A stretch of DNA of 64,000 nt, from positions 192,301-256,300 of the forward strand of contig CAZTUJ010000001.1 in NCBI GenBank assembly GCA_964616855.1. The letters run 5' to 3'. Origin of the DNA: an uncultured Gammaproteobacteria bacterium. GTDB lineage: Bacteria > Patescibacteriota > Patescibacteriia > Patescibacteriales > UBA12465. The translations under genes were made by a program, and so were the position numbers. Positions 2,546-59,277 of this stretch are shown one piece after another. The stretch's first letter is position 1. Every line of letters begins with the position of its first letter. The notes beneath the pieces were generated by a model. That model was not told where the DNA came from. It did not search any database and worked only from the letters and a program-made list of their open reading frames with translations.

Positions 2546-2547
2546 TT

Positions 2548-3867: not shown

Positions 3868-3891
3868 TCTAATTATTTTACTTTTATTTTT

Positions 3892-3922: not shown

Positions 3923-3938
3923 GTACTTATCTAAAGAT

Positions 3939-6941: not shown

Positions 6942-6946
6942 AGAGG

Positions 6947-7867: not shown

Positions 7868-7868
7868 A

Positions 7869-10070: not shown

Positions 10071-10080
10071 AGATAGGCGG

Positions 10081-11103: not shown

Positions 11104-11113
11104 ATTTTTTAAA

Positions 11114-12988
11114 TTAGGCACTTTTATCTTTCTTTTTAAATACTAAAGTGGCAAAGGCATAGCGGTGAGGTCCATATTGAAAATCTGGTTCAGGACAAGA
11201 CCAGTGCGGAGTATCAATGAGCTCGCAATCAGGGATGAGCTCCAGTAGCCTTATTTGTAAATCATTTTTTGTGTATAGCCTTTCATCCTCCATCGGTTTA
11301 TCCTGTCCTGCTTGCCAGTTTTCTAAATAATCACAGGTGATAATAGCTGTGCCGCCGGGTGCCAGGAGCGCGGCTATATCTTTGATAAAAGTTTCGTCAT
11401 CACCAACGTGTTCGATTACGGAAGTGGAAAAAATTAATTGGTAGGAATTGAGGATGGTTGTCGGTTTACTCATATATTCTCGTAAGGAATAATTGCTAAC
11501 CGGATCAATTTCTTCAATTTTAAGTCCCATTTTTTTCAAGCTCAAAGCGGCTGTGTCTTCGTAGCTGCCGACGCATAATATTTTTGAGGTAGTGTTTTCT
11601 GGGAGAAGGCGCCAGACAGTATCAAAAACAAAGGCTTGCTGTATATTGGCGGCGACAATTTTTTGGGCATAAATTTTTGGCGCCAAGAGAGATAACATTT
11701 TTTCCGCCGGAGCGTAGAGTTGCCTAGCCTTTTCATCAAGGATACGATTAAAGGAGTTATCGTTACCCAAGCTAATCGCTTGATATTTTATAGGAGCTAT
11801 TTCTATTTCAGTATTTTCTTCAGTCGCAGATGAGTCTCGTAGCCAAGAAAAATTTTCTTGAGGTTTTTGGAGTAAGCGGTAAACTTTGTTTTTAATTTTT
11901 CCGCGGATACTGATATTTTTTTCTGGGCGTTGATTAAAAATATTATTTAGAATGCGTTCATAGTCCCAGCATAAATTTTCTGGACTCCAATCTTGATATT
12001 TTTCCCAAAGAGGAGCGAAGCCGTTATTGGCAATTGTTAGTAAATCATTTTTTTCTACACAGATGGAGGGTTTAAGGTCGCGGATATGGCGGAACATGGA
12101 GCTGCTAGAAATGGCAATTGGTTTTTTTACCGACATTGCGACATCAACTGCACTAGATAGACCGCGGTCACCATTATCACCGTAGAGAAAGATATTAATA
12201 GTGTTGCCCGCTAGGAAGTTGCGCAATTGTTCGTCGTTTAAGAAATCGTGGGTAACGGTAAGTTTAATTTTTGGATTTTTAATTAAGGCTTGGCAATCTC
12301 TGGCAATTTTTCTAGCATTATCACCATTTTTATCAACAAAGTCGGCGCTAGGAATGTTGAATCTAATTAAAGCTTCGGGTAGGGTTTTTTCAGCGAGAGC
12401 GACAATCTTTCCAAAACCTTTATTGCTTGTACCGAAGCCAAAACTACCGATGGTGAAAATAGCGGGTGAGCCGCCGCCCTCATAGCGTTTAATCAATCTT
12501 CCTGTTTTGTAGACTAGAGGATTAAATAGTCGCAAAGATGGGTCGGGGGTGATGTAAAAATCAAATAGAGAGTTATTGAGCCGACGGTTGATTAAAAATT
12601 GATTGCGATAAGCGATGGCGTTATCAGCAACCGCTTGGGTCACTTCGTGAATAATACCAATCTGGGGAATTTTTATTTTACTAATTCTATTCCAGAATAA
12701 TCTTGGCAGTATTTTTTGGCTCAGCCAAGGCATTGTAATAGGATGGTAGTTATAGATGATACCGTCAGGCTGATGTTGTGCTATTAGTGCCTTTAACTCG
12801 TTGAGACTGGAGCATTCGGTGGGGATAAAATTATATTTTTGAGAAGATTGCAAAATATCAATAATATCTTTACCAAATTCATAAACCCCGCAATGGGTGC
12901 GGCGGTGAGAAACAAATAGTATTTTTTTATTATGGTTTAAAGGCTGTTCAAGATTATTCATAATCAAAAATTTATTGAGTTGCCCCAA
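11114..12988 (-). CDS. Two-domain protein: GT-B-like glycosyltransferase-like N-terminal region plus C-terminal class I SAM-dependent methyltransferase
   Basis: C-terminal aa ~465-560 carry [15 protein letters not shown] (a motif I-like block), [16 protein letters not shown] and [14 protein letters not shown]. The N-terminal ~350 aa have a Rossmann-like GT-B C-half pattern ([18 protein letters not shown]...[11 protein letters not shown]). Start is TTG at 12988 or ATG at 12961. Confidence 0.6.
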
Positions 12989-12989
12989 T

Positions 12990-14327
12990 TTATCTCCCCT
13001 CCCGCCCTAAGACGGTGGCAATCGTTTTTAGGGCGATGGTGGCGTCGAGATAGGGGGAGCGATGCTTAATATAATATAAGTCGTGCTGCAACTTTTTTAA
13101 AGTATCAACCGGGGAGGAGGAATGATATTCACCCGAAACTTGATCCCAGCCACTTAAGCCTGGTTTTACTAAGAGGCGGGTATTATAGAAAGGTAATTGT
13201 TTCTCCAACTCAGCCGAAAATTCTGGTCTTTCCGGACGCGGGCCGATAAAACTCATTTCACCTTTGATCACATTGATTAACTGGGGAATTTCGTCTAAGC
13301 GCGTGGAGCGCAGAAAAGAACCAATTGCGGTAATGCGGTTGTCGTTGATTGTCGTCATCGCGCCATCATTATTTTTTACCCGCATGGTCCGGAATTTATA
13401 TAATTTAAAAGCGCGGCCATTTTTACCAAGGCGCTCTTGAGTGAAGATGGCTGGTCCGGAGCTGCTTAGTTTTACCATTAAGGCAATTAGTGGCCAGAAA
13501 GGTAGGGAGAGCAAGAAGATAATAGCGGCCAGGATGAAGTCCAGGCTTTGTTTAAGAAAATCAAAATAATTTTTTTCACCTTCTTGCAGATTTTCTAGGA
13601 ACCAATCTTGATTAATACTTTCTACCGGCACCTCTTCATTGATTTGTTCATAAAAATTGGTGTAAGAAATGAAGCTAACGCGGTAGCGGAGCAGGGCAAA
13701 TAAACTACTACTAATCATTTCGTTTGCCCCTAAGTCGTCAGCCAGGACAACAATGCGGATATTTTTGGTGCGGATATTTTTTTCTAAATCGGCCAATTCT
13801 GCGGCGTGGCTGATTATTTGGACAATTTGATAACCTAAACCCGGTTTTTTAGCCAGGCTGGCCACTAGGGCAGCGGTTTTTTCATTGTTGCCGATAATGG
13901 CTAAGTTGTTTTGCCAGGCATTAGCACTAGCCAGCCAATAGGCCAGACGTCGCCATAACAAAAAAGCAGCCAAGGCGATGGCGGTAAAAATGGCTAGATT
14001 GGTTTTAGGGGCGATGTCCGCCCGGGGAAAGATATAGAAATAAAGGGCGGCCAGCAGGGAAGCAGCGATGACGCTATTGAAGGTGCGGCGGGTAAAGTTT
14101 TTAATCGCCGCCATTTGGCGGAGACTATAGAGACTATTGATATAAAAAACTAAAATAAAAATTACGAAGACACCAAAAAAATAGCGCCAATGTCCCTGCC
14201 AGTAGGGTGTTAAATCTTGTTGGCCATCAATTAGGCGGTAGCGCACAAACAGCGTTAAAGCTAAAGCGGCGTGGAGAATTAATAAATCTCCGGCTAAGAA
14301 GATTATTTTTTTCAGGCGATGTTTCAT
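12990..14327 (-). CDS. Polyprenyl-phosphate glycosyl-1-phosphate transferase (WbaP/bacterial sugar transferase family), initiating enzyme
   Basis: N-terminal TM helices plus a C-terminal bacterial sugar transferase domain (PAIFTQERLGKNGRAFKLYKFRTM, DEIPQLINVIKGEMSFIGPRPERPEF). ATG at 14327 (MKHRLKK) is preferred over the track start at 14372. Confidence 0.85.
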   Translation of the reverse strand: MKHRLKKIIFLAGDLLILHAALALTLFVRYRLIDGQQDLTPYWQGHWRYFFGVFVIFILVFYINSLYSLRQMAAIKNFTRRTFNSVIAASLLAALYFYIFPRADIAPKTNLAIFTAIALAAFLLWRRLAYWLASANAWQNNLAIIGNNEKTAALVASLAKKPGLGYQIVQIISHAAELADLEKNIRTKNIRIVVLADDLGANEMISSSLFALLRYRVSFISYTNFYEQINEEVPVESINQDWFLENLQEGEKNYFDFLKQSLDFILAAIIFLLSLPFWPLIALMVKLSSSGPAIFTQERLGKNGRAFKLYKFRTMRVKNNDGAMTTINDNRITAIGSFLRSTRLDEIPQLINVIKGEMSFIGPRPERPEFSAELEKQLPFYNTRLLVKPGLSGWDQVSGEYHSSSPVDTLKKLQHDLYYIKHRSPYLDATIALKTIATVLGREGR

Positions 14328-14412
14328 ATTTATGCCTAAATCATAGCAATAAAAATATGGAAAAGCAACCAAAAAAGAGCTCCTCGGTTTAGTGTTTTAA
14401 TTAGGGTTACTA

Positions 14413-23121: not shown

Positions 23122-24426
23122 ATGAATCAAGCAAGCGTAAATAATGATAAATACCACTTTTTGGTGCAGAAAAGGAACGGATCAGTTGTTCCTTTTAATC
23201 TGGATAAAATTGGTAATGCTATTTTTAAGGCCGCGGCCGCTACTGGCCTAGAGTCGCGGGAAGAGGCTGACAGCTTAGCTCTTCAAGTCGCTGATAAATT
23301 ATTGGCTCAGGCGACGGGTGAAACCGCTGCTTTTTGCCCCTCGGTAGAAAGTATCCAAGACTTGGTGGAGGAAGTGTTAATGGCCAGTCCTTTTCCAGAA
23401 GTCGCTAAAGCCTATATCCTCTATCGTGAAAAAAGAGCAGCCATGAGAAGGCGTGATCTTTTTAAGAAAAGAGTTAATTTAAAACCCTACGAGTATCCGG
23501 AGCTTTATGAATATGTCAGCGCCATTCGCCATTCTTATTGGATTCATACAGAATTCAATTATTTGAGTGATATTCAGGATTTTAAAACGGCTGTTAATGA
23601 AGCCGAGCGTCACGCCATTAAGCATTCAATGTTGGCGATTGCTCAGATTGAAGTGGCGGTCAAAGCTTTCTGGGGCGATATTTATAAAAAAATACCAAAA
23701 CCGGAAGTGGCAGCGGTGGGCTTTACTTTTGCCGAAAGCGAAGTGCGCCACATGGATGCCTATTCCCACCTTTTAGAAATTCTCGGTTTGAACGAAGAGT
23801 TTGCCAAGATTAAAGAAATGCCTGTCTTGATGGAGCGGGTGGAGTATTTGGAGAATGCGGTCAGTACGGCCAAGAGCGAAGAAGATAAAGATTATGCTTT
23901 AGCTATTCTGTTGTTCTCTCTTTTTATTGAACATGTTTCTCTTTTTTCTCAATTCTTAATCATGATGTCTTTTAATAAGCATCGGAATTTGTTTAAGGGT
24001 ATTTCCAATGCTGTTGAAGCGACCTCTAAAGAAGAGCAGATTCACGGCCTTTTCGGTATTGAAGTGATTAATTTAATTAAGACCGAGCACCCGGAGTGGT
24101 TTGATGATGATTTTAAGGGCCAGATTCTCCAAGCTTGCCGCCGCGCTTTTGAGTCAGAACAGAAAGTAGTCGATTGGATTTTAGAAAAAGGCGAACTGGA
24201 TTTCTTGCCTAAAGCGGTCATTATTGAATTTATTAAAAACCGTCTCAATAATTCCTTAGCTAGCATCGGCTTAGAACGGATTTTCACAGTTGACGATAAA
24301 TTGCTGGAACAGACGGAGTGGTTTGATGAAGAAGTGGTCACCACCAAGCATGGCGATTTCTTCGTGAAGCGCTCGATTAACTATAACAAGCGGAGTCAAA
24401 GCATTACCGGCGATGATCTGTTTTAA
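23122..24426 (+). CDS. nrdB: Class I ribonucleotide reductase beta (radical-generating) subunit with N-terminal ATP-cone
   Basis: aa ~13-108 form an ATP-cone (FLVQKRNGSVVPFNLDKIGNAIFKA...VAKAYILYREKRAAMRRR). The ferritin-like core has metal ligand blocks AESEVRHMDAYSH (ExxH plus a Tyr 4 residues after the His), LFIEHVSLFSQF and SKEEQIHGLFG. Confidence 0.85.
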   Translation: MNQASVNNDKYHFLVQKRNGSVVPFNLDKIGNAIFKAAAATGLESREEADSLALQVADKLLAQATGETAAFCPSVESIQDLVEEVLMASPFPEVAKAYILYREKRAAMRRRDLFKKRVNLKPYEYPELYEYVSAIRHSYWIHTEFNYLSDIQDFKTAVNEAERHAIKHSMLAIAQIEVAVKAFWGDIYKKIPKPEVAAVGFTFAESEVRHMDAYSHLLEILGLNEEFAKIKEMPVLMERVEYLENAVSTAKSEEDKDYALAILLFSLFIEHVSLFSQFLIMMSFNKHRNLFKGISNAVEATSKEEQIHGLFGIEVINLIKTEHPEWFDDDFKGQILQACRRAFESEQKVVDWILEKGELDFLPKAVIIEFIKNRLNNSLASIGLERIFTVDDKLLEQTEWFDEEVVTTKHGDFFVKRSINYNKRSQSITGDDLF

Positions 24427-24456: not shown

Positions 24457-26136
24457 ATGCAATGGTTAAATGAATATTCACGGTCTTTCTTAGCAAAAGG
24501 CTATCTTAATAAAGGAACAGACGCCGAGCAGCGGATTAGAGATATTGCTAATAGCGCGGAAAAGATTTTAAATAAGCCCGGTTTTGCCGATAAATTTTAT
24601 GACTATATGTCTCGTGGCTACTATTCTCTGGCCTCGCCCATCTGGTCTAATTTCGGCCTGTCCAAGGGTTTCCCTATTAGCTGTTTTTCCTCTTATTTAG
24701 GAGATGATATGGGCCAGATTCTCTTTACCCAAGCAGAAGTGGGTATGATGAGTAAGTATGGCGGGGGTACGGCTGGCTATTTCGGAGACTTGCGGGGCCG
24801 GGGTACGGCTATTAAAGATAACGGCACCTCCTCAGGGGCGGTACATTTTATGCAACTCTTTGAAACCCTGGTTAATGTTGTTAGCCAAGGTTCAGTCCGC
24901 CGCGGTCACTTCGCTCCTTATTTGCCGGTGGAGCACCCTGATATTGAAGAGTTCCTGAATTTGGGTACAGAAGGTAACTCCATTCAAGAGATGACCTACG
25001 GTGTTACTGTAAGTGACCAGTGGCTTACAGATATGGAAAATGGCGACAGTCAGAAGCGGGCCATCTGGGCGAAGATTTTACAGAGACGCAGCCAGATGGG
25101 CTACCCTTATATCTTTTTTACCGATACAGTTAATAACAACACTGTTGATGTTTATAAGGATAAGAAACTGAAAATTAACGCCAGTAATCTTTGTTCGGAA
25201 ATATTGTTACCCTCTAATGAGCAGTGGTCCTTTGTGTGCGATCTTTCTTCTTTAAATCTCCTTTACTATGATGATTGGAAAAATACGGATGCCGTGGAAA
25301 CTTTGGTATATTTCTTAGATGCCGTCATGAGTGATTTTATTAGCCGCTTGGAAGAAATGCGCGACAGTAATGATTCCCGCAAACAGCAGTCCTTTACTTT
25401 TATGAAGAGAGCTTATGATTTTGCTACCCAGAATCGGGCTTTAGGTTTAGGGGTTTTGGGTTGGCACTCTTTATTGCAGAGCAAGATGATGCCTTTAGAT
25501 AGTCGGGAGAGCGCCCGTTTGAATGTGGCAATTTTCAAAGATATCCAAGAGCAGGCCTACGCCGCTTCGAAGAAGATGGCGCTTGAATACGGCGAGCCGG
25601 AAGTTTTAAAGGGTTATGGTCGCCGTAATACTACTTTAATGGCGATCGCTCCGACCACCTCTTCCGCTTTTATTTTAGGTCAGGTTTCCCAGAGCATTGA
25701 GCCGATTTGGTCTAACTGCTACGTTAAAGATATTGATAAGATGAAGGTGACAATTAAGAATAAGCAACTAGAGAAATTATTAGAAGAAAAAGGACAGAAT
25801 TCTAAAGAGGTTTGGGCAAGTATTCGTGATAATGATGGTTCAGTTCAGCAGCTATCTTTTTTAAGTCCAGAGGAGAAGGAAATCTTTAAGACTTTCCAGG
25901 AAATTAGCCAGAAGGTTATTATTGAGCATGCGGCCGCCCGTCAAGCCTATATTGATCAGGGTCAATCTCTCAACTTAGCTATCAATCCGGCTGTCCCCGC
26001 TAAGGAAATTAACGCTTTATATATGTATGCCTGGAAGTTGGGCATTAAGACCCTTTACTACCAGCACAGCATTAATGCCGCTCAACAGTTCGGGCGTTTA
26101 AAAGATTTACAGAATTGTCAGTCTTGCCAGTCCTAG
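24457..26136 (+). CDS. nrdA: Class I ribonucleotide reductase alpha subunit, short form without ATP-cone
   Basis: 559 aa. Active-site blocks are FPISCFSS, INASNLCSEILLP (Asn-x-Cys-x-Glu) and FVCDLSSLNL, with a C-terminal redox pair CQSCQS. No ATP-cone-like N-terminus is present. Confidence 0.85.
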   Translation: MQWLNEYSRSFLAKGYLNKGTDAEQRIRDIANSAEKILNKPGFADKFYDYMSRGYYSLASPIWSNFGLSKGFPISCFSSYLGDDMGQILFTQAEVGMMSKYGGGTAGYFGDLRGRGTAIKDNGTSSGAVHFMQLFETLVNVVSQGSVRRGHFAPYLPVEHPDIEEFLNLGTEGNSIQEMTYGVTVSDQWLTDMENGDSQKRAIWAKILQRRSQMGYPYIFFTDTVNNNTVDVYKDKKLKINASNLCSEILLPSNEQWSFVCDLSSLNLLYYDDWKNTDAVETLVYFLDAVMSDFISRLEEMRDSNDSRKQQSFTFMKRAYDFATQNRALGLGVLGWHSLLQSKMMPLDSRESARLNVAIFKDIQEQAYAASKKMALEYGEPEVLKGYGRRNTTLMAIAPTTSSAFILGQVSQSIEPIWSNCYVKDIDKMKVTIKNKQLEKLLEEKGQNSKEVWASIRDNDGSVQQLSFLSPEEKEIFKTFQEISQKVIIEHAAARQAYIDQGQSLNLAINPAVPAKEINALYMYAWKLGIKTLYYQHSINAAQQFGRLKDLQNCQSCQS

Positions 26137-41502: not shown

Positions 41503-42549
41503 ATGTTCAATAAACTTATTGGAAAATTTAGCCATGACCTCGGCATTGACCTGGGTACTAAGAATACCTTAATCGTGATGAGCGAGAAGGGTTTGGTTGT
41601 TAACGAACCTTCGGTGGTGGCTATTAATAAACGGACTAATGAAATTCTGGAAGTCGGGACGGCTGCCAAGAAAATGGTGGGCAAGACTCCGGCGCATATT
41701 GAAGCTATTAAGCCTTTAGTAGACGGGGTGATTTCTGATTTTGAAGTTACGGAAAAAATGTTGAAATACTTTATTAATAAAGTTCACCAAGAACATTTTG
41801 CCCTTATTCCTCGCCCTCGCGTGGTTATTGGCATTCCTTTAGATTTAACCGAAGTAGAGAAGAAGGCGGTAGAAGACGCCGCTCGTTCAGCGGGTGCGCG
41901 CAAGGTCTATTTAGTAGAGGAGGCGATGGCTTCGGCGGTGGGCGCTCATTTGCCGGTGACAGAGGCAACCGCCACGATGATTGTCGATATTGGTGGTGGC
42001 AGCACAGAGATTGCCGTTATTTCTTTGGGCGGCGTGGTTACTTGGAAATCGTTGCGTTTGGCTGGTAATGAATTTGACAGCAATATCATTGAGTACATCC
42101 GTGAAGAATTTAATATTTTAATTGGTGAGCAGTTGGCGGAAGAAATAAAGATTACTATCGGTTCGGCTATTCAAAATGGCGAGACCCAAGAGATGGAGGT
42201 TCGCGGTCGGGATTTAATTAACGGTTTGCCTAAAGCGATTATTGTTAATGATAAGCAGATTAGGGAAGCGATTGGCCGGACAGTGGGTAAAATAATTGAG
42301 AACATCAAGACTATTTTAGAAACCACCCCGCCAGAACTTGTTTCTGATATTTATGAAAGTGGGATTTACTTATCTGGCGGTGGCGCTTTACTCCGAGGCT
42401 TAGATCAGGCTATTTCTTCAGCCGCCAAGATTCCCGTGAAGATCGTTGATGATCCTTTAACTTGCGTTGTTCGTGGGGCTGGTATCTTGATTAGTGATCC
42501 GGAACTATTATCCAAAGTCACTTTAAATAATGTTTCTCTGGACAAATAA
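41503..42549 (+). CDS. mreB: Actin-like rod-shape protein MreB
   Basis: LGIDLGTKNTLI, NEPSVVAI, MIVDIGGGSTEIAVISLGG and IYLSGGGALLRGLD. mreC and mreD follow. Confidence 0.9.
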   Translation: MFNKLIGKFSHDLGIDLGTKNTLIVMSEKGLVVNEPSVVAINKRTNEILEVGTAAKKMVGKTPAHIEAIKPLVDGVISDFEVTEKMLKYFINKVHQEHFALIPRPRVVIGIPLDLTEVEKKAVEDAARSAGARKVYLVEEAMASAVGAHLPVTEATATMIVDIGGGSTEIAVISLGGVVTWKSLRLAGNEFDSNIIEYIREEFNILIGEQLAEEIKITIGSAIQNGETQEMEVRGRDLINGLPKAIIVNDKQIREAIGRTVGKIIENIKTILETTPPELVSDIYESGIYLSGGGALLRGLDQAISSAAKIPVKIVDDPLTCVVRGAGILISDPELLSKVTLNNVSLDK

Positions 42550-47333: not shown

Positions 47334-48341
47334 ATGTTTATAAAGCGTATCGGTATCGATTTAGGCACTACTTACACCTTGGTATATTTACCGCGGCGGG
47401 GGATTGTAATTAACGAACCTTCAGTGGTAGCTGTTTCCATTGATGACAATAAAATTTTAGCTGTTGGTAACGAAGCTAAGGATATGTTGGGTCGCACCCC
47501 TGATACTATTGTCGCGGCCCGCCCCCTTAAAGACGGAGTAATTGCCGATTATCGCACCACTGAAGCGATGATTCGTTATTTTATTAACAAAACTTTAGGC
47601 GGCATTCGCCTTTTCCGACCTGAAGTAATGGTGGCAGTACCGGCGGGTATTTCTTCCACGGAAAGGCGCGCGGTGATTGAGGCTACCATCGCCGCCGGGG
47701 CTAAGGCAGCTTATATTATTAAAGAGCCCGTGGCGGCCGCGATTGGGGCTGATATTCCGATTGGTTCTGCGACTGGTCACATGATTATTGACATTGGCGG
47801 TGGCACCGCAGAAATGGCCGTTATTTCTCTGGGCGGCATTGTCGCCTCTACTTCTGTGCGCGTGGGCGGCAATAAATTTGATGCCGCTATCTTAGAGCAT
47901 ATTCGTAAGAAATATAATTTAGCAATTGGCGAGCGCACGGCTGAGGAGATTAAGATTAATATCGGCTCCGCTCTTTACGTTGAAGATAAGTTGTATATGG
48001 AAATTCGCGGCCGGGATATGGTAACCGGATTGCCGCGCAGTATCACCGTTTCTAGCGATGACGTCACGGAAGCAATCCAGAATGAGTTGGAAGCAATTGT
48101 GGCCGCGGCCAAGAAAGTTTTACAGAAGACTCCTCCCGAGTTGGCGGCTGATATTATGGATAAAGGCATTATTCTTTCTGGAGGTAGTTCTTTGCTCCGC
48201 AATATGGATCAGCTCATTGCTCGCACCACTGGTGTCCCGGCTTATGTGGCTGATGATGCTCTCTTGTGCGTTGCCAAGGGAACCGGCATCGCTTTAGATA
48301 ACCTTGATTCTTATAAGCGTAGTATTTTAGCGACTAAATAG
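47334..48341 (+). CDS. mreB: Second MreB/Mbl-type actin homolog
   Basis: IGIDLGTTYTLV, NEPSVVAV, MIIDIGGGTAEMAVISLGG and IILSGGSSLLRNMD. By eye it is roughly half identical to the mreB at 41503. Confidence 0.85.
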   Translation: MFIKRIGIDLGTTYTLVYLPRRGIVINEPSVVAVSIDDNKILAVGNEAKDMLGRTPDTIVAARPLKDGVIADYRTTEAMIRYFINKTLGGIRLFRPEVMVAVPAGISSTERRAVIEATIAAGAKAAYIIKEPVAAAIGADIPIGSATGHMIIDIGGGTAEMAVISLGGIVASTSVRVGGNKFDAAILEHIRKKYNLAIGERTAEEIKINIGSALYVEDKLYMEIRGRDMVTGLPRSITVSSDDVTEAIQNELEAIVAAAKKVLQKTPPELAADIMDKGIILSGGSSLLRNMDQLIARTTGVPAYVADDALLCVAKGTGIALDNLDSYKRSILATK

Positions 48342-49647: not shown

Positions 49648-51687
49648 ATGAAACGATTCGTGACATCTTTTTTTGCATTTTTGCTTCTCATGGTTCCAGC
49701 TGCTGGTGCCAGTTTTTTGCCGAACGATAGCTACTATCATAATCAATGGTATTTGACGCGCGTGCAGGCGCCTGCTGCTTGGGAAAAGGCAAATAGTAGT
49801 CCTAATATAAAAATTGCAGTGGTTGATGCTGGCGTCCAAATTGATCACCCTGATTTAGAAGGCAACATTTGGGTTAATACTAAAGAGGTGCCTGGTAATA
49901 AGATTGATGATGACCATAATGGTTTTATTGATGATGTAAATGGTTGGGATTTTGTGGAAAATATACCTGATCCTTCACCTAAATTTGATGAGGGTTGGAC
50001 GGAGTCTGGGGTTTCCCATGGGACGATGGTTGCTGGGATTATTGCCGCTACTGGTAATAATCGCCAAGGTATTACCGGAGTAACTTGGCGGGCTCAGATT
50101 ATGCCTTTGCGTGCCTTAAATGATAAGGGGGAAGGGCGTGTCGGCGCCGTCGTGCGGGCCATTGATTATGCGGTTCATAACGGAGCGGATATTATTAATT
50201 TAAGTTTTGTTGGTTTCAACTATAGCCAAGCTTTACAAGATGCCATCCAGCGGGCTTACGATGCCGGGGTAATTGTTGTCGCGGCCGCCGGCAACGAGCA
50301 GGAAGATGGGGAAGGTTATAATACTGATAAGCATCCGATTTATCCCGCTTGTTATGACGGTAAAAACGGGGAGAACATGGTGATTGGTGTGGCCGCCACT
50401 GATGCTCTTGATCAGAAAGCTGATTTTTCTAGCTATGGCTTTAAGTGTGTAGATGTTGCTGCTCCTGGCGTCAGTTTTTTTAGCACCATCACCTACGGGG
50501 GCAATCCCATGGAAAGAGATAAATACTATGATGGCTTTTGGTCAGGTACCTCCATGGCGACACCAGTTATTAGTGGTTCACTCGCTTTAGTAGCGGAAGC
50601 TAATCCGCAGTTGAAGCCTACTGAGGTTGTAAATATTCTTTTGCAATCAGCTGACAATATTAGTCGCCTTAATCCTGTTTATTTAGGTCAGCTTGGTTCG
50701 GGTCGTGTTAATTTAGATAGAGCTTTAAATACCGCTCAAGAAAAATTATACGCTCATCTTGGTCGTCTTCTGATTAGTCCTGAATCTGGTCTCCCAATGG
50801 CCAGTAGTAGTCCGGAGCTAAACATTACGGATAGAGGTGGCTCTGTTTTGCATCATTGGCCAGTGAGCGAGGCCGCTGGTGGTGTGTTTGCTTCCGGTGA
50901 TGTTGATGCTAATGGTGAAGATGAGGTGATTAGTGCCGCCGCCTCCGGTCAGGAACCTTTTGTCAGTATCTACGGACCGGATGGCACTTTGCGTGGACGT
51001 TTCTTAGTTTTTGATCGGCGCTTTAAAGGCGGTTTCAGTTTAGCGGTGGCCGATATTAATGATGATGGTTTTGAAGAAATTATTGTTGGGGCTGGCGCCG
51101 GCGGCGGACCGCATGTCCGAATTTTTGATCATAAAGGACGTTTGCGCGGTCAATTTTTTGCTTTTGAAAATAATTTTCGCGGCGGGGTGAATGTGGCAGC
51201 GGGTAATATCGATGGCCAAGGAGCGGCGGAAATTATCGCTGCGCGTGGCGTGGGCGGAACTCCAGAGATTAAGATTTTCGATCGGCGTGGTCTTTTACAG
51301 GGACAATTTTTTGCTTTTGAAAATAAATTTCGCGGTGGCCTGAATGTGGCAGTGGCTAATATTGATGGACGTAATAATCGTAATCAAGACGAAATTATTG
51401 TTGCCCCCGGTGCGGGAAGAGAGCCGTTGATTAAAGTATTTTCCAATAAAGCGGTGTTGAAATCTTCTTTTTTAGCCTTTGGTCGTAACTTTCAGGGCGG
51501 GGTGAATGTAGCGGCGGGCGATATTGATAATGATGGTCGCGCTGATATTGTTACCGGTGCCAGTGCTGGGGCCATGCCGCACGTCCGGATCTTCAGTGGT
51601 CAAGGTGAACTTAAAGAATCTTTTTATGCTTTTCCCGACGGTTTTACCGGCGGTGTCAATCTTAGTGTTATTGATTTTATCAATTAA
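49648..51687 (+). CDS. Secreted subtilisin-like (S8) serine protease fused to a C-terminal FG-GAP/integrin-alpha-like beta-propeller
   Basis: Signal peptide. The catalytic triad contexts are VAVVDAGV (Asp), SHGTMVAG (His) and GTSMATP (Ser). At least five ~51-aa repeats of F.AF...F.GGVNVAAG(D/N)IDGDG..EII...G.GG.P.(V/I)(R/K)IF follow. Confidence 0.85.
   Translation: MKRFVTSFFAFLLLMVPAAGASFLPNDSYYHNQWYLTRVQAPAAWEKANSSPNIKIAVVDAGVQIDHPDLEGNIWVNTKEVPGNKIDDDHNGFIDDVNGWDFVENIPDPSPKFDEGWTESGVSHGTMVAGIIAATGNNRQGITGVTWRAQIMPLRALNDKGEGRVGAVVRAIDYAVHNGADIINLSFVGFNYSQALQDAIQRAYDAGVIVVAAAGNEQEDGEGYNTDKHPIYPACYDGKNGENMVIGVAATDALDQKADFSSYGFKCVDVAAPGVSFFSTITYGGNPMERDKYYDGFWSGTSMATPVISGSLALVAEANPQLKPTEVVNILLQSADNISRLNPVYLGQLGSGRVNLDRALNTAQEKLYAHLGRLLISPESGLPMASSSPELNITDRGGSVLHHWPVSEAAGGVFASGDVDANGEDEVISAAASGQEPFVSIYGPDGTLRGRFLVFDRRFKGGFSLAVADINDDGFEEIIVGAGAGGGPHVRIFDHKGRLRGQFFAFENNFRGGVNVAAGNIDGQGAAEIIAARGVGGTPEIKIFDRRGLLQGQFFAFENKFRGGLNVAVANIDGRNNRNQDEIIVAPGAGREPLIKVFSNKAVLKSSFLAFGRNFQGGVNVAAGDIDNDGRADIVTGASAGAMPHVRIFSGQGELKESFYAFPDGFTGGVNLSVIDFIN
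50880..51684 (+). repeat. Coding tandem repeats (period about 153 bp) encoding FG-GAP blades
   Basis: For example, 51151-51215 and 51304-51368 differ at only 7 of 65 nt by eye (caattttttgcttttgaaaataa...gaatgtggcag...gatgg). Confidence 0.8.
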
Positions 51688-52729: not shown

Positions 52730-52758
52730 AAAAACTCCCGTGTAAGCGGGAGTTTTTT
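52730..52758. terminator. Bidirectional hairpin terminator between convergent genes
   Basis: Stem ctcccg (52735-52740) pairs with cgggag (52747-52752), with an A5 run upstream and a T6 run downstream. Confidence 0.8.
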
Positions 52759-53815
52759 AGTTGGTTTTTACTATTTTTTTGAAAGCCGCCGCTAAAGCGG
52801 TGCTATCTCCGGGCGGCACCAGGGTTAAATCTAGGAAGGGAGAAAGCTCAGGGATGCCACCGATATCAGACGCGAGGCCGCGGAGGCCATGGCTCGCTGC
52901 TTCCCAGAGACTAGTAGGGGAATTTTCATAGACTAAAGAGGGAACCACGACAACATCAGTTTTGTTTAGGAGTTGTTCGACGCCAGCTCGGTCTAAATTG
53001 TCAAGATAAGAGACATTACTATAGTTAGTGCTTTCTTTTTCCAACCAAGGGGAAAGACTACCTTTACCGGCAATCGTTAAATTTGCCTCTTCGTTGTTAA
53101 GAGTGGCTTTCTGCCAGGCGGCGAGTAGTATGGCTAGACCTTTATGTTTTTCGGCTTGGCCAATGAAAGCAAAAGCTACCGGTTTATTAAGAATTTTCGT
53201 TTCTTGACGCTTTATCTGGAAATTAAGTCGGACTTCGCTTTTTTGTTTTTTAAAAAATCCTTTTTTTTGATGAAGCGTCAGTAACCACTGAGAAGGGGAA
53301 ATAATGTTTTTTGCCCCCTGGATTGACCAGCGGGTACCGATTTGATAGCAACGGGCAAGCAGGGAATCAATAATTTTTTCTTCTCCCCAATACATTAGTC
53401 CTGAGGGGTGGAGCAGTTGAATATCATGTAAAATATGCTCATGTTTAATTTGATGTTTGGCCAAGAGGCGGGGCAAGTAAAAACCAAGGCCGATGAGATT
53501 ATGGGTAATAACTAAACTTGGTTTGCGCTCTTTGATTATTTTTTTTAATTGGTGGTGATGCCAGGGATAAAGGAGTTGTCCTAGATGCCAGATTATTTTT
53601 TGTAGATTATTGTAAGTAGAAAGTCGTTCGTAGTGGGAATTAAGATAATAAATATCTTTTTCTTGAGAACGTTCAGCTCCCGGAAGTTTAGTAGTGATAA
53701 TAAAAACTTCGTGGCCGGCAGTACGCAAATCATTAGCCATTTTGTGGGCCACAATTTCTGCGCCACTATTACGGCCGTAAGGAGGATAAAGATTGTTGGC
53801 TATGCCGATAATCAT
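52757..53815 (-). CDS. Glycosyltransferase family 4
   Basis: MIIGIANNLYPPYGRNSGAEIVAHKMA, and the C-terminal VVVPSLVYENSPTSLWEAASHGLRGLASDIGGIPE. Confidence 0.75.
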   Translation of the reverse strand: MIIGIANNLYPPYGRNSGAEIVAHKMANDLRTAGHEVFIITTKLPGAERSQEKDIYYLNSHYERLSTYNNLQKIIWHLGQLLYPWHHHQLKKIIKERKPSLVITHNLIGLGFYLPRLLAKHQIKHEHILHDIQLLHPSGLMYWGEEKIIDSLLARCYQIGTRWSIQGAKNIISPSQWLLTLHQKKGFFKKQKSEVRLNFQIKRQETKILNKPVAFAFIGQAEKHKGLAILLAAWQKATLNNEEANLTIAGKGSLSPWLEKESTNYSNVSYLDNLDRAGVEQLLNKTDVVVVPSLVYENSPTSLWEAASHGLRGLASDIGGIPELSPFLDLTLVPPGDSTALAAAFKKIVKTN

Positions 53816-53818
53816 AAT

Positions 53819-54997
53819 TTAGTAATTTTCTGAAAATTCGTCCAAGATGCGGTCAGCCACTTTTTCCCAAGCATACTTTTCTTCTACTAGCGTGCGGGCG
53901 GCTTTTGCCATTTTTTGGCGGAGATTTTCATCTTGAATTAGGGTGTTAATTTTAGCGGCAAGATCGCCGACATCACCAGGCTCACAACGCAAACCCTGTT
54001 CGCCGTCCCTAAAGACGCTGCGCACCCCGGGCAAGTTACTAGCGATTACTGGCAGGCCACAAGCCATAGCTTCAATTAGGACTAAGCCGAAGGCTTCATG
54101 AGCGTTGATAGAGGGGAGAACTAGAATATCAGCACTCTGGTATTGGCGGATTAATTCTTCTTCAGTGACGCGTCCGAGAAAATTAACTTGCCGTTTGATA
54201 CCAAGACTGTTTACCTGGGCTTCATATTGAGAGCGCAAATCGCCATCGCCGATAATATTAAGGCTAACTGAGGATTTAAGCATGGGTAGAGCTTTAAAAA
54301 GGACACTTAAACCTTTGAAATAATGAGCACTGTCCAAGCCACCCACAAAGAGCAGGGTGTGTCCGCCTCTTTTAATAAAGCGTCGCGTGACAAAGTTAAC
54401 GATATCAGCGGCGCGGGCATTAATACCTTTTTCCGCACCACTAATTTTCGGACGAAAGATTTCCGTTTCTACACCGAAGGGGACAGCTTTTATTTTTTCT
54501 GGATACATTCTGGTAATTGCCGCTAGTTGCCCATTTTCAGCGTAGTCTAAAGTGCTGACAATAATTTTTTCCGCCCTTTTCATTAATTTTGTTAATAAAC
54601 AGCGTGAAGGTAGGGCTAGCAATTTTTTAGCCCCGCGCAGGGCAGGCGTGTCCATGTGGTAATGAATAATTAATCTTTGTTTTTTGCGAAAACGGCTGAG
54701 AAGAAAGATTAACAAATCGGCACCGAAAAAAGGATAATGCAGGTAGATTAAGTCATAGGATAAGAGGCGAAAGGGGAGGGTAAGAGGGAAGGCGCCATGA
54801 CCAGCGCGGAGGCGTGGTCGAAGAAAAACTAAACGTTGGACGCCTATTGGTGCTTGAGGATTTTTTTCATTTTGGGGCGCTAAAGAGAAAGTCGTGAGCT
54901 GATGTTCTCGACTTAAGATTTCTCCTAAACGATAAGCGCTCTGGCCGATACCACCGGCATAGGGTGGAAAGGCGCAGACGATTTGAGCTATTTTCAT
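53819..54997 (-). CDS. Glycosyltransferase family 4
   Basis: MKIAQIVCAFPPYAGGIGQSAYRL, and LVLPSINAHEAFGLVLIEAMACGLPVIASNLPGVRSVF. Confidence 0.8.
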   Translation of the reverse strand: MKIAQIVCAFPPYAGGIGQSAYRLGEILSREHQLTTFSLAPQNEKNPQAPIGVQRLVFLRPRLRAGHGAFPLTLPFRLLSYDLIYLHYPFFGADLLIFLLSRFRKKQRLIIHYHMDTPALRGAKKLLALPSRCLLTKLMKRAEKIIVSTLDYAENGQLAAITRMYPEKIKAVPFGVETEIFRPKISGAEKGINARAADIVNFVTRRFIKRGGHTLLFVGGLDSAHYFKGLSVLFKALPMLKSSVSLNIIGDGDLRSQYEAQVNSLGIKRQVNFLGRVTEEELIRQYQSADILVLPSINAHEAFGLVLIEAMACGLPVIASNLPGVRSVFRDGEQGLRCEPGDVGDLAAKINTLIQDENLRQKMAKAARTLVEEKYAWEKVADRILDEFSENY

Positions 54998-55013: not shown

Positions 55014-55334
55014 TTATTGTTTAAGGGTAATGGTGCGCACCAAGTCGGTTAGTTCTTTTTCTAACTTACTGATTTTTAGACGCAGTTTAAAGATAAAATA
55101 AAACAAGCTAATAACGGCGAGGTAAAGTAAAAAGTTGATGCCAGAGCCGGAAAAGCCTGCGCTAACCAGGACTTTATCCAGTAGACGGATGAAGATAATG
55201 GCTATTCCACCTAAGGACCAGAAAGCTAACCAGAAGAGGAATTCATTACCTCCGATCTGGCCTTTTTTCTTCTGGACTAAGAGTCTCCAGATAAAGATAG
55301 CAATAAATGCTAGAGCGATTGCTTGTTGTAACAT
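55014..55334 (-). CDS. Small membrane protein, DUF2304-like
   Basis: 106 aa with four hydrophobic segments and a C-terminal amphipathic KLRLKISKLEKELTDLV. The size, topology and GT neighbourhood fit DUF2304. Assigned by eye only. Confidence 0.45.
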   Translation of the reverse strand: MLQQAIALAFIAIFIWRLLVQKKKGQIGGNEFLFWLAFWSLGGIAIIFIRLLDKVLVSAGFSGSGINFLLYLAVISLFYFIFKLRLKISKLEKELTDLVRTITLKQ

Positions 55335-55389: not shown

Positions 55390-55836
55390 TTGTTCAATCC
55401 TAATATTCACATCATGAAACAATTATGGAAAAGCCAGGCTTTAGGGCTGCTTTGGTTTTTGATTATTTATACCCTTATTCGCTTAGTTTTGCGACAGCCG
55501 GCGGCCGCTATTCAGGATGCAGAAATTTTGATAATTGTTGGGTCAGCTTTGGCTTTTTGTTGGCTGACTTTAGCTTTTATTAAAGAGAGCTTATCAGGCT
55601 TATCGGCTTCTTTGAATTTAAGTGTGACTACTATTTTTTTCTTTTTCAATTGGGGTGACTTTGGTTTTTTGAAAGCTGAGATTGCCCTGGGCTCATTATT
55701 AATCGTATCGGTAATTATCTTCGGATATGAATTAATAAAAGCTTTGCAAAAAGAGAGGGAAGCTTGGTTTCCGGTGTTGATAAATGTGACCGTTCTCCTG
55801 TTTTTCTTATTTTTAATGGAGAAGATGGTCTCATAA
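55390..55836 (+). CDS. Hypothetical polytopic membrane protein
   Basis: 148 aa with about 4 TM segments. TTG at 55390 or ATG at 55414. No family was recognised. Confidence 0.45.
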   Translation: MFNPNIHIMKQLWKSQALGLLWFLIIYTLIRLVLRQPAAAIQDAEILIIVGSALAFCWLTLAFIKESLSGLSASLNLSVTTIFFFFNWGDFGFLKAEIALGSLLIVSVIIFGYELIKALQKEREAWFPVLINVTVLLFFLFLMEKMVS

Positions 55837-55869: not shown

Positions 55870-55897
55870 AAGGGCGTTCGCAAGAGCGCCTTTTTTT
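55870..55897. terminator. Bidirectional hairpin terminator
   Basis: Stem ggcgtt (55873-55878) pairs with agcgcc (55885-55890) with one G-U pair. It is followed by a T7 run and preceded by a second small hairpin (tttcag/ctgaaa, 55848-55868). Confidence 0.7.
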
Positions 55898-56555
55898 ATT
55901 GACTAATTTTTTGGATGAACAGATCTTTGAGAATGCGGATGCCGCCAGAAAATTTCTGACCGTATTTATGATAGGTAACGGTAATCGGTACTTCTTTTAT
56001 CCGCCAGTGGCCACGGCTCAGTTTAATTAGGATTTCGCTACAATGGGCCATTTCGTTATTTTCAATACGGAAACTTTGGGCTACTTCTTTGGTATAGGCG
56101 CGGAAACCACTTTGGGGATCGCTAGTCTTGACGCCAAAGAAACGGTTGACTAGGCGTCCTAGCGGCCAGATGAGGTATTTTTTTAATTTTGGTAAATCCG
56201 ATTTTTTTCCTAAGAAGCGGGAGCCGAAAACAACGTCAGCCTCACCTTTTTTAATAGGAGCAACGATGTCGGCAATTTCTGAAGCCGCAAATTGGTCGTC
56301 GGCATCAAAGTGGACAATAATATCTGCTCCTAACTTTAAAGCATAGTCACTGCCGGTCTGTAAAGCCGCACCCTGACCGCGGTTAATCGGATGTCTTAAT
56401 ACAAAAACGCCGGCTTCTTTTGCCAGGGCGCTTGTCCGGTCGCGGGAACAATCGTCTACTACTATCACTGTATCTACTAAGTCTTTGACCTTGTCAACGA
56501 CGGAACGGATATGTTTTTCCTCATTCCAGGCAGGAATGACGCAGGCTACTTTCAT
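55896..56555 (-). CDS. Glycosyltransferase family 2, polyprenol-phosphate sugar synthase-like (DPM1/GtrB-type)
   Basis: MKVACVIPAWNEEKHI, VIVVDDCSRDRT, HFDADDQF (DxD) and VVFGSRF, in a compact 219-aa single-domain protein. Confidence 0.85.
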   Translation of the reverse strand: MKVACVIPAWNEEKHIRSVVDKVKDLVDTVIVVDDCSRDRTSALAKEAGVFVLRHPINRGQGAALQTGSDYALKLGADIIVHFDADDQFAASEIADIVAPIKKGEADVVFGSRFLGKKSDLPKLKKYLIWPLGRLVNRFFGVKTSDPQSGFRAYTKEVAQSFRIENNEMAHCSEILIKLSRGHWRIKEVPITVTYHKYGQKFSGGIRILKDLFIQKISQ

Positions 56556-57661
56556 ATTTTTTTACGGATTTGGGCCCAGGCAGCAATCTCTTCAATATTA
56601 ATTAAGCCTAGTTCGGCTTTAGCCAGGGCCTCTTGAATCAGCGGTTGATAGCCGGCTTGGAGGCGTCCGTCTGGCAGGAAGCGCATAATTTCAAAAATTG
56701 CTGTTTTGGGAGCGATATTGCCTTGGCGGCAGTGTTTACAACCATGGTTTTGGAATAGTTTTTTCGGCCAGAAATTACGGACCGAGGGCCAGGCACTCAG
56801 TATAGTTTTTTTAATTTCCGGACCAGGGTCAAAGCTGTGTAGGCAACGAGTACAAGGACGTTTGAATAATTTTTGGGCACTGATAAAAATTAATTGTTCG
56901 GCAATAGCGGCGGCACTTAAGCCGGTGCGGCGAAGAATTTTAACCGCGCTCGCAGCATCTTTAGCACTTAAGGTGAGAATGACTAAGCGGCCAGTCGCGG
57001 CCAGGCGGAATACATTTTTTAAATCTTCTGAGTTTAAAGGAGCGTCGATTCCGATTAGCTCGCTATCAAAACGGGCAACTCTTTCCAGAGCTGTGGTAGG
57101 ACTAGAATATTTTTGCAGATTGATAGTATTAATTCCGGAGAGAGGGTTGACGGGGTAAGTCTCTAGAGAGTAGGCGCTGCGTCCAGCGGCTGCCAAGGAA
57201 AGTAGGGAATAATAGGTGCTGGTGGCGCCATTTTCTTCGGGTGAAACAATAATAATAACCCCGGCTCTTTTTTTAATTCCTTGGCGATAAATTTCTTGTT
57301 GTTCTTTATTGGCACCAAGGGCAGATATTCTTTTTATGAATGGAGTTTCTGAGCTGAGAGTAATAATTAATTTTTCGCCTTCACGAGAAGGGAGGAGGGT
57401 AGCGCGGCCGCTAATTAGATTTTGTTTGTCGGTGATCTTAAAACGTTTGTTTGCAAATAGTTCATTTTCAGAGGCGCCAACCAGTCGGCGAAAGGTCTCA
57501 GCGACGCTGATTTCTGTTTCTCTATCAAGGCGGAGATAATCTGTGTTTTCTCCGCGCCCGCAAGTACAAACTAAAGTCGCCCCCTTTTTTTCTAAGTGGA
57601 GATGGCTGTGGCCCTTTTCTTGGGCATAGCGACAGATGGTCTTGGCGATTTTTTCTGACAT
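56552..57661 (-). CDS. GspE/PilB-family secretion-ATPase homolog with degenerate nucleotide-binding motifs (predicted pseudo-ATPase)
   Basis: Collinear with the GspE/PilB N2 and C-terminal domains. The Walker A position reads SPEENGAT (nt 57221-57244) instead of GPTGSGKT. The Asp-box reads ETYPVN, Walker B reads LIGIDAPLNSED instead of (V/I)(M/L)VGEIRD, and the His-box reads GRLVILTLSAKD instead of GHLV.STLHTN. The tetracysteine CTRC...CKHC is retained. There is a 4-nt overlap with the downstream GT2. Confidence 0.7.
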   Translation of the reverse strand: MSEKIAKTICRYAQEKGHSHLHLEKKGATLVCTCGRGENTDYLRLDRETEISVAETFRRLVGASENELFANKRFKITDKQNLISGRATLLPSREGEKLIITLSSETPFIKRISALGANKEQQEIYRQGIKKRAGVIIIVSPEENGATSTYYSLLSLAAAGRSAYSLETYPVNPLSGINTINLQKYSSPTTALERVARFDSELIGIDAPLNSEDLKNVFRLAATGRLVILTLSAKDAASAVKILRRTGLSAAAIAEQLIFISAQKLFKRPCTRCLHSFDPGPEIKKTILSAWPSVRNFWPKKLFQNHGCKHCRQGNIAPKTAIFEIMRFLPDGRLQAGYQPLIQEALAKAELGLINIEEIAAWAQIRKKI

Positions 57662-57786
57662 AATCTCATTATATCATTATCCGCTTGATTTTTAAAATGG
57701 CCAATAATATGATATTATATATAAATAAGATGGCAGCAATAGAGTTTGGCAGCTATTTTTGATTTTTTTAGTTATTTTCCTAATTT

Positions 57787-58221
57787 TTGGCAAAATTTAT
57801 TAAATTTATGGCTTTTTCTTTTTACAGCCGTTGGTATACTTGGCGGCGAGCTCTGGGCGTTTTTTTAAGCTCCTATTGGCGTTATCGCCCTAATCGTCGC
57901 TATTTAGTGTTAGCACTTATTATCCAGGTCGTACTTTGGTTCTTCGCTTATAGGATTTTTGCCACCGTCGGTCAAGATCTTTTTGTCGCCCATTATAATG
58001 TTGACTTCGGTATTGACGCTATTGGAGACGGTCGCCGGGTTTTCAGCTCTCCGCTTTTAGCACTAGGCGTTATTGTCCTTAATTTTTTATTAACGGCTAT
58101 TTTTGCTCGGCGCGAGCATTTTCATTTTCTCAGTCACGCTTTCGGTTTACTAACAGTCTTTACTCAAATTTTAGCAGCCTTAGTTTTAATGTCTCTTTAT
58201 TTGATAAATTTTCTCGCCTAA
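57787..58221 (+). CDS. Hypothetical membrane protein preceding mraY
   Basis: About 3 TM segments. TTG at 57787 or ATG at 57808. No family was recognised. Confidence 0.45.
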   Translation: MAKFIKFMAFSFYSRWYTWRRALGVFLSSYWRYRPNRRYLVLALIIQVVLWFFAYRIFATVGQDLFVAHYNVDFGIDAIGDGRRVFSSPLLALGVIVLNFLLTAIFARREHFHFLSHAFGLLTVFTQILAALVLMSLYLINFLA

Positions 58222-58227
58222 CCTTTT

Positions 58228-59277
58228 ATGCTTATTTTCTACATTGTTAAAATTCTATTGTTATCCGCTTTAGCTTTTATTTTTGCCATGGCTTGTACAC
58301 CCGCTTTAACCAATTTTTTATATAAGTATAAGCTAGGCAAGCAAATCCGTAATGGTGGGGATACCCCAATTTTTAGTAAGCTTCATGCGCATAAAGCCGG
58401 GACGCCGACGATGGGTGGAATTTTAATTTGGGGAACGGTTTTAGTTTTTATGGTGCTTTTTTCTTTTTTGGCTGATGTTATGCCTGGTGATATTTTTAAA
58501 TATTTGAATTTTTTCTCCCGCTCAGAAACTTTGTTGCCTTTAGGGGCCTTAGTGGCGAGTGCTATTATTGGTCTATTGGATGATTGGCTTGATGTCAGCG
58601 GCCGTGGTGTTTTTGGCGGTGGGGGGTTAAAACTGAAACATCGTCTTTTGATTTATGCCTTAATTGCCGCGGCTGGCGCTGCCTGGTTTTATTTTAAACT
58701 TGATTGGACGGTTTTTCATATTCCTTTTTTCGGTAATTTTGAAATTTCTTGGTGGTATATCCCGGTATTTATCTTTGTCATTGTGGCCACTTCTTTTTCT
58801 GTTAACGAAACAGATGGCCTCGATGGTTTGGCTGGTGGCACTTTGATGATTGCTTTTGCCGCTTATGGTATCATCGCCTTTGCTTTGGGTCGCTATGAAT
58901 TAGCGGCTTTCTGCGGAGTTATTATTGGCGCCTTACTCGCCTTTCTTTGGTTTAATATTCCTCCCGCCCGTTTTTATATGGGGGATACGGGTGCCATGAG
59001 TCTCGGAGTGACTTTAGGGGTGATTGCGATGTTGACCAATAGCGCTCTCTTTCTGCCTTTGATTGGCCTGATTTTTTTAATTGAGTCTTTGTCAGTAATT
59101 ATTCAGATGCTTTCTAAAAAGTTCCGTGGTAAAAAGGTGTTTTTGTCCTCGCCTATCCATCACCATTTTCAAGCTTTAGGTTGGCCAGAGTCAAAAATTG
59201 TTATGCGTTTCTGGGTGATTGCCTCCATGGGTGCCGTTTTAGGACTATTAATCTTTTTAGCTGATAGGCAGTGGTAG
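58228..59277 (+). CDS. mraY: Phospho-N-acetylmuramoyl-pentapeptide transferase
   Basis: HAHKAGTPTMGG, LLDDWLD, NETDGLDGLAGG, FYMGDTGAMSLG and SSPIHHHFQ. Confidence 0.95.
   Translation: MLIFYIVKILLLSALAFIFAMACTPALTNFLYKYKLGKQIRNGGDTPIFSKLHAHKAGTPTMGGILIWGTVLVFMVLFSFLADVMPGDIFKYLNFFSRSETLLPLGALVASAIIGLLDDWLDVSGRGVFGGGGLKLKHRLLIYALIAAAGAAWFYFKLDWTVFHIPFFGNFEISWWYIPVFIFVIVATSFSVNETDGLDGLAGGTLMIAFAAYGIIAFALGRYELAAFCGVIIGALLAFLWFNIPPARFYMGDTGAMSLGVTLGVIAMLTNSALFLPLIGLIFLIESLSVIIQMLSKKFRGKKVFLSSPIHHHFQALGWPESKIVMRFWVIASMGAVLGLLIFLADRQW

Follow-up and report, generated by a model that had tools for sequence, protein, structure and literature searches.

A probable PilB-derived pseudo-ATPase encoded upstream of a GacI-like glycosyltransferase gene in Patescibacteria

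The PilB/GspE-fold gene and its degenerate motifs

The window, a 64-kb stretch of contig CAZTUJ010000001.1 assigned to the Patescibacteria, possesses on its minus strand an open reading frame (ORF) of 369 amino acids (aa) at 56552-57661 with the fold of the PilB/GspE secretion and pilus ATPases. An earlier note, prepared from the sequence alone, described its product as a protein in which all catalytic motifs are degenerate. On the evidence given below, the gene is very probably a PilB-derived pseudo-ATPase, maintained by selection and standing as the positional orthologue of PilB. The protein matched the Pfam family T2SSE (PF00437) with 72.6 bits against a cut-off of 24.9. It missed all NCBIfam equivalog cut-offs, reaching 89 bits against 676 with the PilB model; scores and cut-offs with the models for PilB, GspE, TfpB or ComGA were 89/676, 85/617, 80/850, 74/630 and 43/300. 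The closest solved structures were Thermus PilF, Vibrio GspE/EpsE and Geobacter PilB (E 1e-20 to 1e-14). Only the N2 and C-terminal ATPase-fold domains are present. The MshEN/N1 region is missing, and the protein starts at about residue 174 of canonical PilB in the alignment. In the databases the orthologues are named 'ATPase, T2SS/T4P/T4SS family', 'TadA' or 'GspE/PilB-like'. The motifs and the cysteine module are situated in the gene as follows.

57221-57244, minus strand: degenerate Walker A SPEENGAT, residues 140-147, aligned with PilF GPTGSGKS
57146-57172, minus strand: degenerate Asp box YSLETYPVN, residues 164-172, aligned with PilF TIEDPVEYE
57032-57067, minus strand: degenerate Walker B DSELIGIDAPLN, residues 199-210
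56954-56995, minus strand: degenerate His box TGRLVILTLSAKDA, residues 223-236, both His gone
56729-56854, minus strand: tetracysteine zinc-type module C270-x2-C273 ... C308-x2-C311, located by the PilF alignment

The motif register was set by HMMER alignment to Thermus PilF (5it5, E 1.6e-20), and this alignment bears out the degeneracy of every catalytic motif. The Walker A sequence GPTGSGKSFT of PilF is replaced by SPEENGATST, with Ala in place of Lys and two Glu inside the P-loop, confirming the Lys-less SPEENGAT which had been read from the DNA. Similarly, TIEDPVEYEIPG of the PilF Asp box is replaced by SLETYPVNPLSG and TGHLVIATLHTNDA of the His box by TGRLVILTLSAKDA. The Walker B DPDIIMVGEIRD of PilF corresponds to DSELIGIDAPLN, in which GE is changed to DA (IGIDA against MVGEI) and the catalytic Glu to Ala. 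D206, which follows four hydrophobic residues, occupies the position of the Walker B Gly. Among the N2-domain arginines the first (R86) is kept and the second is lost (canonical vLRLL to IITLS). The tetracysteine CEHC...CERC of PilF is matched by CTRC...CKHC, with the codons for C270 and C273 confirmed on the DNA. The non-catalytic blocks R-x-x-x-x-P...GEK and AQ[KR]L are common with PilB/GspE.

The AlphaFold2 (AF2) monomer model predicted from 22 orthologues (pLDDT 86, pTM 0.83) could be superposed on the cores of PilF, PilB and GspE with TM up to 0.78, the best Foldseek match being PilF 5oiu (TM 0.78, E 1e-29). Along with the motif loss, this superposition suggests that the fold was retained while the chemistry was not, in agreement with the pseudo-enzyme which the earlier note had proposed. 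Both the PilF alignment and the agreement in fold speak against misregistered motifs, and that reading was rejected.

Conservation and selection of the degenerate form

The orthologue search covered 5.8 billion proteins; 31 were recovered at 45% identity or more, and all but one of these were full length (363-372 aa). Below this level the identity fell sharply to canonical PilBs at about 26%. Several orthologues are labelled Patescibacteria or Candidatus Falkowbacteria. The degenerate motifs are conserved among orthologues sharing 45-86% identity. Conservation of individual residues was counted in an alignment of 22 core orthologues. Invariant residues were E143, G145, S148, Y150 and S152 around the old P-loop, Y164, S165, E167 and P170 at the Asp box, and also D199, D206, R225 and L226. 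C270, C273 and C311 were also invariant and C308 was present in at least 90%. The Walker A Lys was found in 0 of these 22 orthologues and is also absent in P0001-P0031 and P0046-P0049. In comparison with the 92%-identical relative L008, the ratio of nonsynonymous to synonymous substitution rates (dN/dS) was 0.060 for the pseudo-ATPase, 0.059 for the GT2 glycosyltransferase encoded downstream and 0.064 for MurG. Such purifying selection shows that the product is still used. The degenerate form is thus conserved across genomes, as the 22 aligned orthologues and the dN/dS of 0.06 show.

Another reading takes the gene for a relic without function, left over from a lost pilus operon and heading for deletion. 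Some sister lineages no longer have the gene, the copy in L044 is frameshifted, and the protein evolves faster than its neighbours, all of which would suit such a relic. However, the dN/dS of 0.06, the intact ORFs of constant size in about 50 contigs over deep divergence and the conserved replacement residues in the old motifs make this reading barely credible. A decaying pseudogene was accordingly rejected on dN/dS and on the conservation of the motif residues.

A wider profile search among 1.84 billion representative proteins placed the window clade at the extreme end of a larger orthologous group. Most members of this group are 335-390 aa long and still possess GxxxxGK[ST]. None of them has a Walker B Glu or a second His. 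In a subgroup of about 335 aa the cysteines are lost too. The retention of the zinc tetracysteine claimed in the earlier note therefore holds for the window clade and does not extend to these other members of the group.

The sequence GxxxxGK[ST], kept by many sister orthologues, bears on whether the protein could be a working NTPase which uses non-canonical residues, for instance with D206 serving as the Walker B Asp. This residue does not vary among the orthologues and comes after four hydrophobic positions, as in a classical Walker B. But the window clade has two Glu in the loop and no P-loop Lys, and it also lacks the catalytic Glu, the His-box His and the second N2-domain Arg. A working NTPase of this kind is very improbable. 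Judged from sequence, residual NTPase activity is unlikely in the window clade and conceivable in the relatives which retain GK[ST] and, like the window clade, possess D206 behind four hydrophobic residues.

Gene organization around the pseudo-ATPase

The stop codon of the pseudo-ATPase gene overlaps the start codon of the GT2 gene by 4 nt, as noted earlier; the overlap is ATGA at 56552-56555 on the minus strand. The other features of the locus are as follows.

55896-56555, minus strand: GT2 glycosyltransferase, 219 aa, GacI/PpgS-like polyprenyl-phosphate sugar synthase (Pfam Glycos_transf_2, 93.8 bits)
55014-55334, minus strand: DUF2304 small membrane protein, presumed GacJ/Rv3632-type activator of the GT2 (Pfam DUF2304, 58 bits)
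53819-54997 and 52757-53815, minus strand: two GT4 glycosyltransferases, end of the conserved gene string
57668-57696, minus strand: promoter-like TTTAAA-17-TGnTATAAT from a consensus scan alone, ending 7 nt before the ATG
57787-58221, plus strand: conserved polytopic membrane protein of about 140 aa, divergent anchor of the locus
58228-59277, plus strand: MraY, followed by FtsW, MurG and a MurC-like ligase

The best NCBIfam match of the GT2 was PpgS with 165.7 bits, under the cut-off of 370. Its catalytic blocks including DxD are conserved, and a FDADDQF block is present in the GT2 alignment. NCBIfam gave nothing specific for the two GT4 enzymes, the small membrane proteins or DUF2304. A gene for a polytopic membrane protein of about 148 aa (55390-55836) is wedged on the plus strand between GT2 and DUF2304. 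Its product is 57% identical to the L008 copy, where the neighbours show 88-99%, with a dN/dS of 0.17, and only some of the related loci possess the gene. This opposite-strand gene along with the promoter-like site suggests that the pseudo-ATPase and GT2 form a two-gene unit. The promoter-like site ends so close to the ATG that the mRNA may be leaderless. The earlier note had found no pilin, PilC or PilM/N/O gene nearby, and this stood: no PilC, PilM/N/O or pilin domain was present in the Pfam-scanned window ORFs of at least 100 aa, and no prepilin motif in the window ORFs of at least 40 aa. The Rfam scan of the window gave no matches.

States of the locus among relatives

In every orthologue context retrieved, the same gene string was observed: dcw genes and the small membrane protein, and divergently from them the PilB-like gene, GT2, DUF2304, GT4 and GT4. 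Distant orthologues from the profile search of representatives also showed this string, and the pairing of the PilB-like gene with GT2 was conserved in about 50 independent contigs. To include loci of other composition, metagenome contigs were scanned with GT2 as bait, which gave 80 loci with 54-95% GT2 identity. The GT2 and DUF2304 pairing was kept at all related loci, and four states were distinguished upstream of it. State A (5-6 loci; L069, L078 and L086 are examples) possesses a canonical PilB of 578-584 aa directly upstream of GT2, with MshEN and T2SSE (Pfam 443 bits) and all motifs intact. State B (about 49 loci) possesses the short degenerate form without the Walker B Glu, most members retaining GK[ST]. 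State C (10 loci) has no PilB-like gene, and the small membrane protein is directly divergent from GT2. State D (5-8 loci) lacks the dcw cluster and has another gene upstream of GT2, an epimerase in the loci scanned.

Canonical and intermediate forms were also found in the same setting. In L105, labelled Falkowbacteria, a canonical PilB adjoins the small membrane protein and MraY, and after it come PilC (T2SSF) and a pair of pilin-like genes. P0092 (L103) is full length with intact Walker A and B and a lost His box. P0157 (L104) is N-terminally truncated with a lost His box and is 64% identical to canonical PilB. The divergent dcw arrangement stands next to a canonical or near-canonical PilB in L105, L069 and L103. 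Identity to the L105 PilB was 75% for state A, 64% for P0157, 43-48% for P0092, P0072 and P0088, 33% for P0096, 28% for P0067 and 22-25% for the window clade. The canonical PilB family, with 74-90% identity, is widespread in Patescibacteria including Falkowbacteria-labelled genomes. The ATGA overlap with GT2 was found in 19 degenerate-form loci, while canonical PilB is separated from GT2 by a spacer of 21-121 nt. Neither the 64-kb window nor the 7-8 kb around each of the about 50 degenerate-form loci contained PilC, a pilin or a second PilB.

A few loci showed individual peculiarities. In L044 the PilB-like gene upstream of GT2 (61-1121, plus strand) is split into two overlapping ORFs, representing a frameshifted pseudogene or an assembly error. 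L100 possesses a PilB-like ORF of 314 aa (6898-7839, minus strand) which is more degenerate still, with SQMRPSEKNEIFYA in the P-loop region and no zinc module; it lies on the opposite strand 6 kb downstream of the GT2 operon, not upstream. L031 has no PilB-like gene, and GT2-DUF2304 is followed by a 442-aa protein (6849-8174, plus strand) with a pilin-type N-terminal methylation motif and Fib_succ_major. In L105 the dcw cluster is interrupted (2414-6916, minus strand) by an amidohydrolase, an acetyltransferase, a HigB/HTH toxin-antitoxin pair and an ornithine carbamoyltransferase-like gene.

The positional orthology with a pilus PilB brings in the main rival to a role with the GT2, namely a pilus-linked regulator. 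Here the dead PilB would dock on a PilC/PilM platform or mix with an active PilB encoded elsewhere and tune assembly, and its position beside GT2 would be a historical leftover. Canonical PilB likewise adjoins GT2 in some lineages, and canonical PilB is widely present in the phylum (74-90% identity, Falkowbacteria-labelled genomes included). Type IV pili are reported to be well conserved in Patescibacteria (10.1101/2024.11.25.624915). Against this stand the absence of PilC, pilin and a second PilB from the window and from the surroundings of the degenerate-form loci, the missing N-terminal region of canonical PilB, and the tight stop/start coupling to GT2, which arose in degenerate forms only. 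On this evidence a pilus regulator is unlikely, though it is to be taken seriously.

A different partner may be sought on the divergent side of the locus. As a cell-wall scaffold, the pseudo-ATPase would serve the membrane protein of about 140 aa along with MraY, FtsW and MurG and not the GT2 operon. The divergent membrane protein of 137-150 aa and MraY are kept in every locus state, and the small membrane protein and the pseudo-ATPase evolve at a similar rate. However, the membrane protein and the dcw genes are unchanged in ten loci where the PilB-like gene is absent (L031, L034, L061, L094, L095, L037, L040, L041, L075 and L080), and there is no coupling signal except the common intergenic region. 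We consider a cell-wall scaffold improbable.

Descent from PilB and order of losses

When arranged by their content, the loci represent a graded series at one site: PilB-PilC-pilins, canonical PilB with GT2, loss of the His box, loss of the N-terminus and the Walker B Glu, loss of the Walker A Lys as in the window, and absence of the gene. The stepwise loss was observed by comparing loci. In the GT2 neighbour-joining (NJ) tree the states clustered by lineage, the Lys-less window clade was nested in Lys-retaining short forms, and the Walker A Lys was lost at least twice more, independently. In the PilB NJ tree the degenerate family was monophyletic and its nearest neighbours were other long-branch, partly degenerate proteins. 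The PilB tree supports an in-situ origin, short of proof. Profile scores were not decisive on this point, the L069-type PilB reaching 271 bits, slightly above the 235-257 of other canonical PilBs. Both trees are distance trees without support values, so the order of events is one which we infer.

The ancestor of this Patescibacteria group, in which several relatives are labelled Ca. Falkowbacteria, would have possessed a pilB-pilC-pilin operon divergent from mraY-ftsW-murG. In the window lineage the platform and pilin genes would have gone from the locus. The PilB gene would then have shed the MshEN region and, stepwise, the His box, the Walker B Glu and lastly the Walker A Lys. The N2/C-terminal domain fold would have been retained throughout, and in the window clade the zinc module also.

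Outside the window, proteins of about 1000 aa with two complete PilB ATPase modules in tandem and canonical or near-canonical motifs were found (P0054, P0057, P0058, P0061-P0063, P0065, P0066, P0068 and P0071); those with an organism label belong to Paceibacterota/Parcubacteria.

Comparison with known systems

The pseudo-ATPase resembles PilB/PilF/GspE (T2SSE) in its N2 and C-terminal ATPase fold (TM 0.78 to Thermus PilF), the tetracysteine module and the non-catalytic blocks, and it has the same position next to mraY as Patescibacteria PilB. It differs by the lack of the Walker A Lys, Walker B Glu, His-box His, second N2 Arg and MshEN/N1, and by a locus without a PilC or pilin partner. It is a pseudo-enzyme branch of a known secretion ATPase family, and the stepwise series records its evolution with unusual clarity. 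The ATPases of secretion systems and pili are regarded as obligate motors, and a selected family without catalytic motifs suggests that the fold is useful beyond ATP hydrolysis. Annotation of such genes as active 'T2SS/T4P/T4SS ATPase' or 'TadA' is a systematic error, and counting them as PilB overstates the pilus capacity of Patescibacteria. The graded series offers a comparative system for the change from motor to pseudo-enzyme, showing the surfaces which stay conserved after catalysis is lost.

Three other systems are similar in part. In Myxococcus xanthus a PilB-fold protein also affects polysaccharide output independently of pilus assembly (PMC11656802), but it is an active motor with a second job, whereas in the window protein the chemistry was lost naturally and a glycan link is suggested by gene order alone. 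GacI-GacJ of Streptococcus pyogenes and PpgS-Rv3632 of Mycobacterium tuberculosis likewise combine a GT2 of about 220 aa with a DUF2304 membrane protein (10.1101/180810). The described pairs have no PilB-like partner, the window GT2 stays under the PpgS cut-off (165.7 against 370), and an opposite-strand gene lies between the window GT2 and DUF2304. The bacterial tyrosine pseudokinase EcpK is a degenerate P-loop protein reported to act as a non-catalytic part of an envelope polysaccharide pathway (PMC12004946). Its fold and ancestry are unrelated (BY-kinase/MinD-like, not secretion ATPase), which makes it an analogy only. The literature searched, whose coverage was incomplete, gave no account of a PilB/GspE family that is degenerate by nature, nor of a GacI/GacJ-type enzyme with a partner resembling PilB, so that this is absence of evidence only.

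Possible role with the GT2 operon

As the earlier note suggested, the protein may serve glycolipid synthesis as a scaffold or regulator, and the gene order makes this plausible. In the mechanism considered here, ATP hydrolysis would be lost and canonical ATP binding probably lost too. The pseudo-ATPase would be a cytoplasmic, probably oligomeric adaptor, made in a fixed ratio with the GacI-like synthase by means of the ATGA overlap. It may organise or gate the glycolipid step of GT2 and the DUF2304/GT4 steps where the cell-wall precursors are made. The co-transcription apparently conserved across deep divergence and the ATGA overlap in degenerate forms point to such a role. A precedent comes from M. 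xanthus, in which PilB modulates exopolysaccharide output independently of ATP hydrolysis, and signalling persists in a Walker A K-to-A mutant (review PMC11656802). GT2 with DUF2304 is a known combination of enzyme and activator. In GacI/GacJ (PpgS/Rv3632) the polyprenyl-phosphate sugar synthase is bound by the small protein, which makes it far more efficient (10.1101/180810).

Several observations weigh against this proposal. GT2 also adjoins canonical PilB, so the adjacency predates the degeneration and may be inherited and not functional. With canonical PilB at the same site upstream of GT2, the adjacency is partly inherited. At least 10 sister loci, and other arrangements besides, possess GT2-DUF2304-GT4-GT4 and no PilB-like gene, which shows that the pseudo-ATPase is not needed for the GT2 pathway in general. 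The pairing with GT2 stressed in the earlier note is therefore conserved, in about 50 contigs, but cannot simply be taken for a functional link. The pseudo-ATPase shows 28-33% identity where GT2 shows 57-62% and MraY 75-81%. Its invariant residues are marginally enriched at the old nucleotide site (14/64 in 53/369 positions, p = 0.05), and with so marginal an enrichment a new ligand site is not claimed. No evidence of a fusion, an interaction or an oligomer was obtained. Taken as a whole, the explanation by a PilB-derived pseudo-ATPase with a GT2-linked mechanism is evenly balanced between right and wrong. The GT2-linked scaffold or regulator role by itself is tentative and has somewhat less than an even chance. 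If the link is true, polyprenyl-phosphate sugar synthesis would have a regulatory layer that is new, and this in organisms about whose envelopes very little is known.

In a more specific version of the GT2-linked role, the PilB ring would have been retained after the locus had lost its platform and pilin genes, and would regulate or scaffold the synthesis of envelope glycolipids without the need for nucleotide. This history is possible but on balance rather unlikely. If true, it would mean that a non-motor moonlighting function of PilB is older than the catalytic loss, and the locus series would be a rare record of an AAA+-like secretion motor becoming a pseudo-enzyme.

Other genes in the window

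Apart from the locus, the window possesses a large second glycan-synthesis cluster at 1589-14372. It contains a UDP-glucose dehydrogenase-like gene, a Wzx-type flippase, two GT4 and two GT2 genes, a 733-aa C-methyltransferase/sugar dehydratase fusion, a GDP-mannose dehydratase and an initiating sugar transferase. Two MreB paralogues are present. One (41503-42549, plus strand) is followed by MreC and MreD, and the other (47334-48341, plus strand) adjoins a block of GT4, S8 peptidase and epimerase genes. The S8 subtilase at 49648-51687 (plus strand) contains FG-GAP repeats, has a mycosin-like best NCBIfam match and adjoins GT4/epimerase genes in most related loci. Ribonucleotide reductase is encoded by two plus-strand genes at 23122-24426 and 24457-26136. 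The small subunit possesses an N-terminal ATP-cone and the large subunit only the all-alpha and barrel domains, hinting that allosteric control may sit on the radical-generating subunit.

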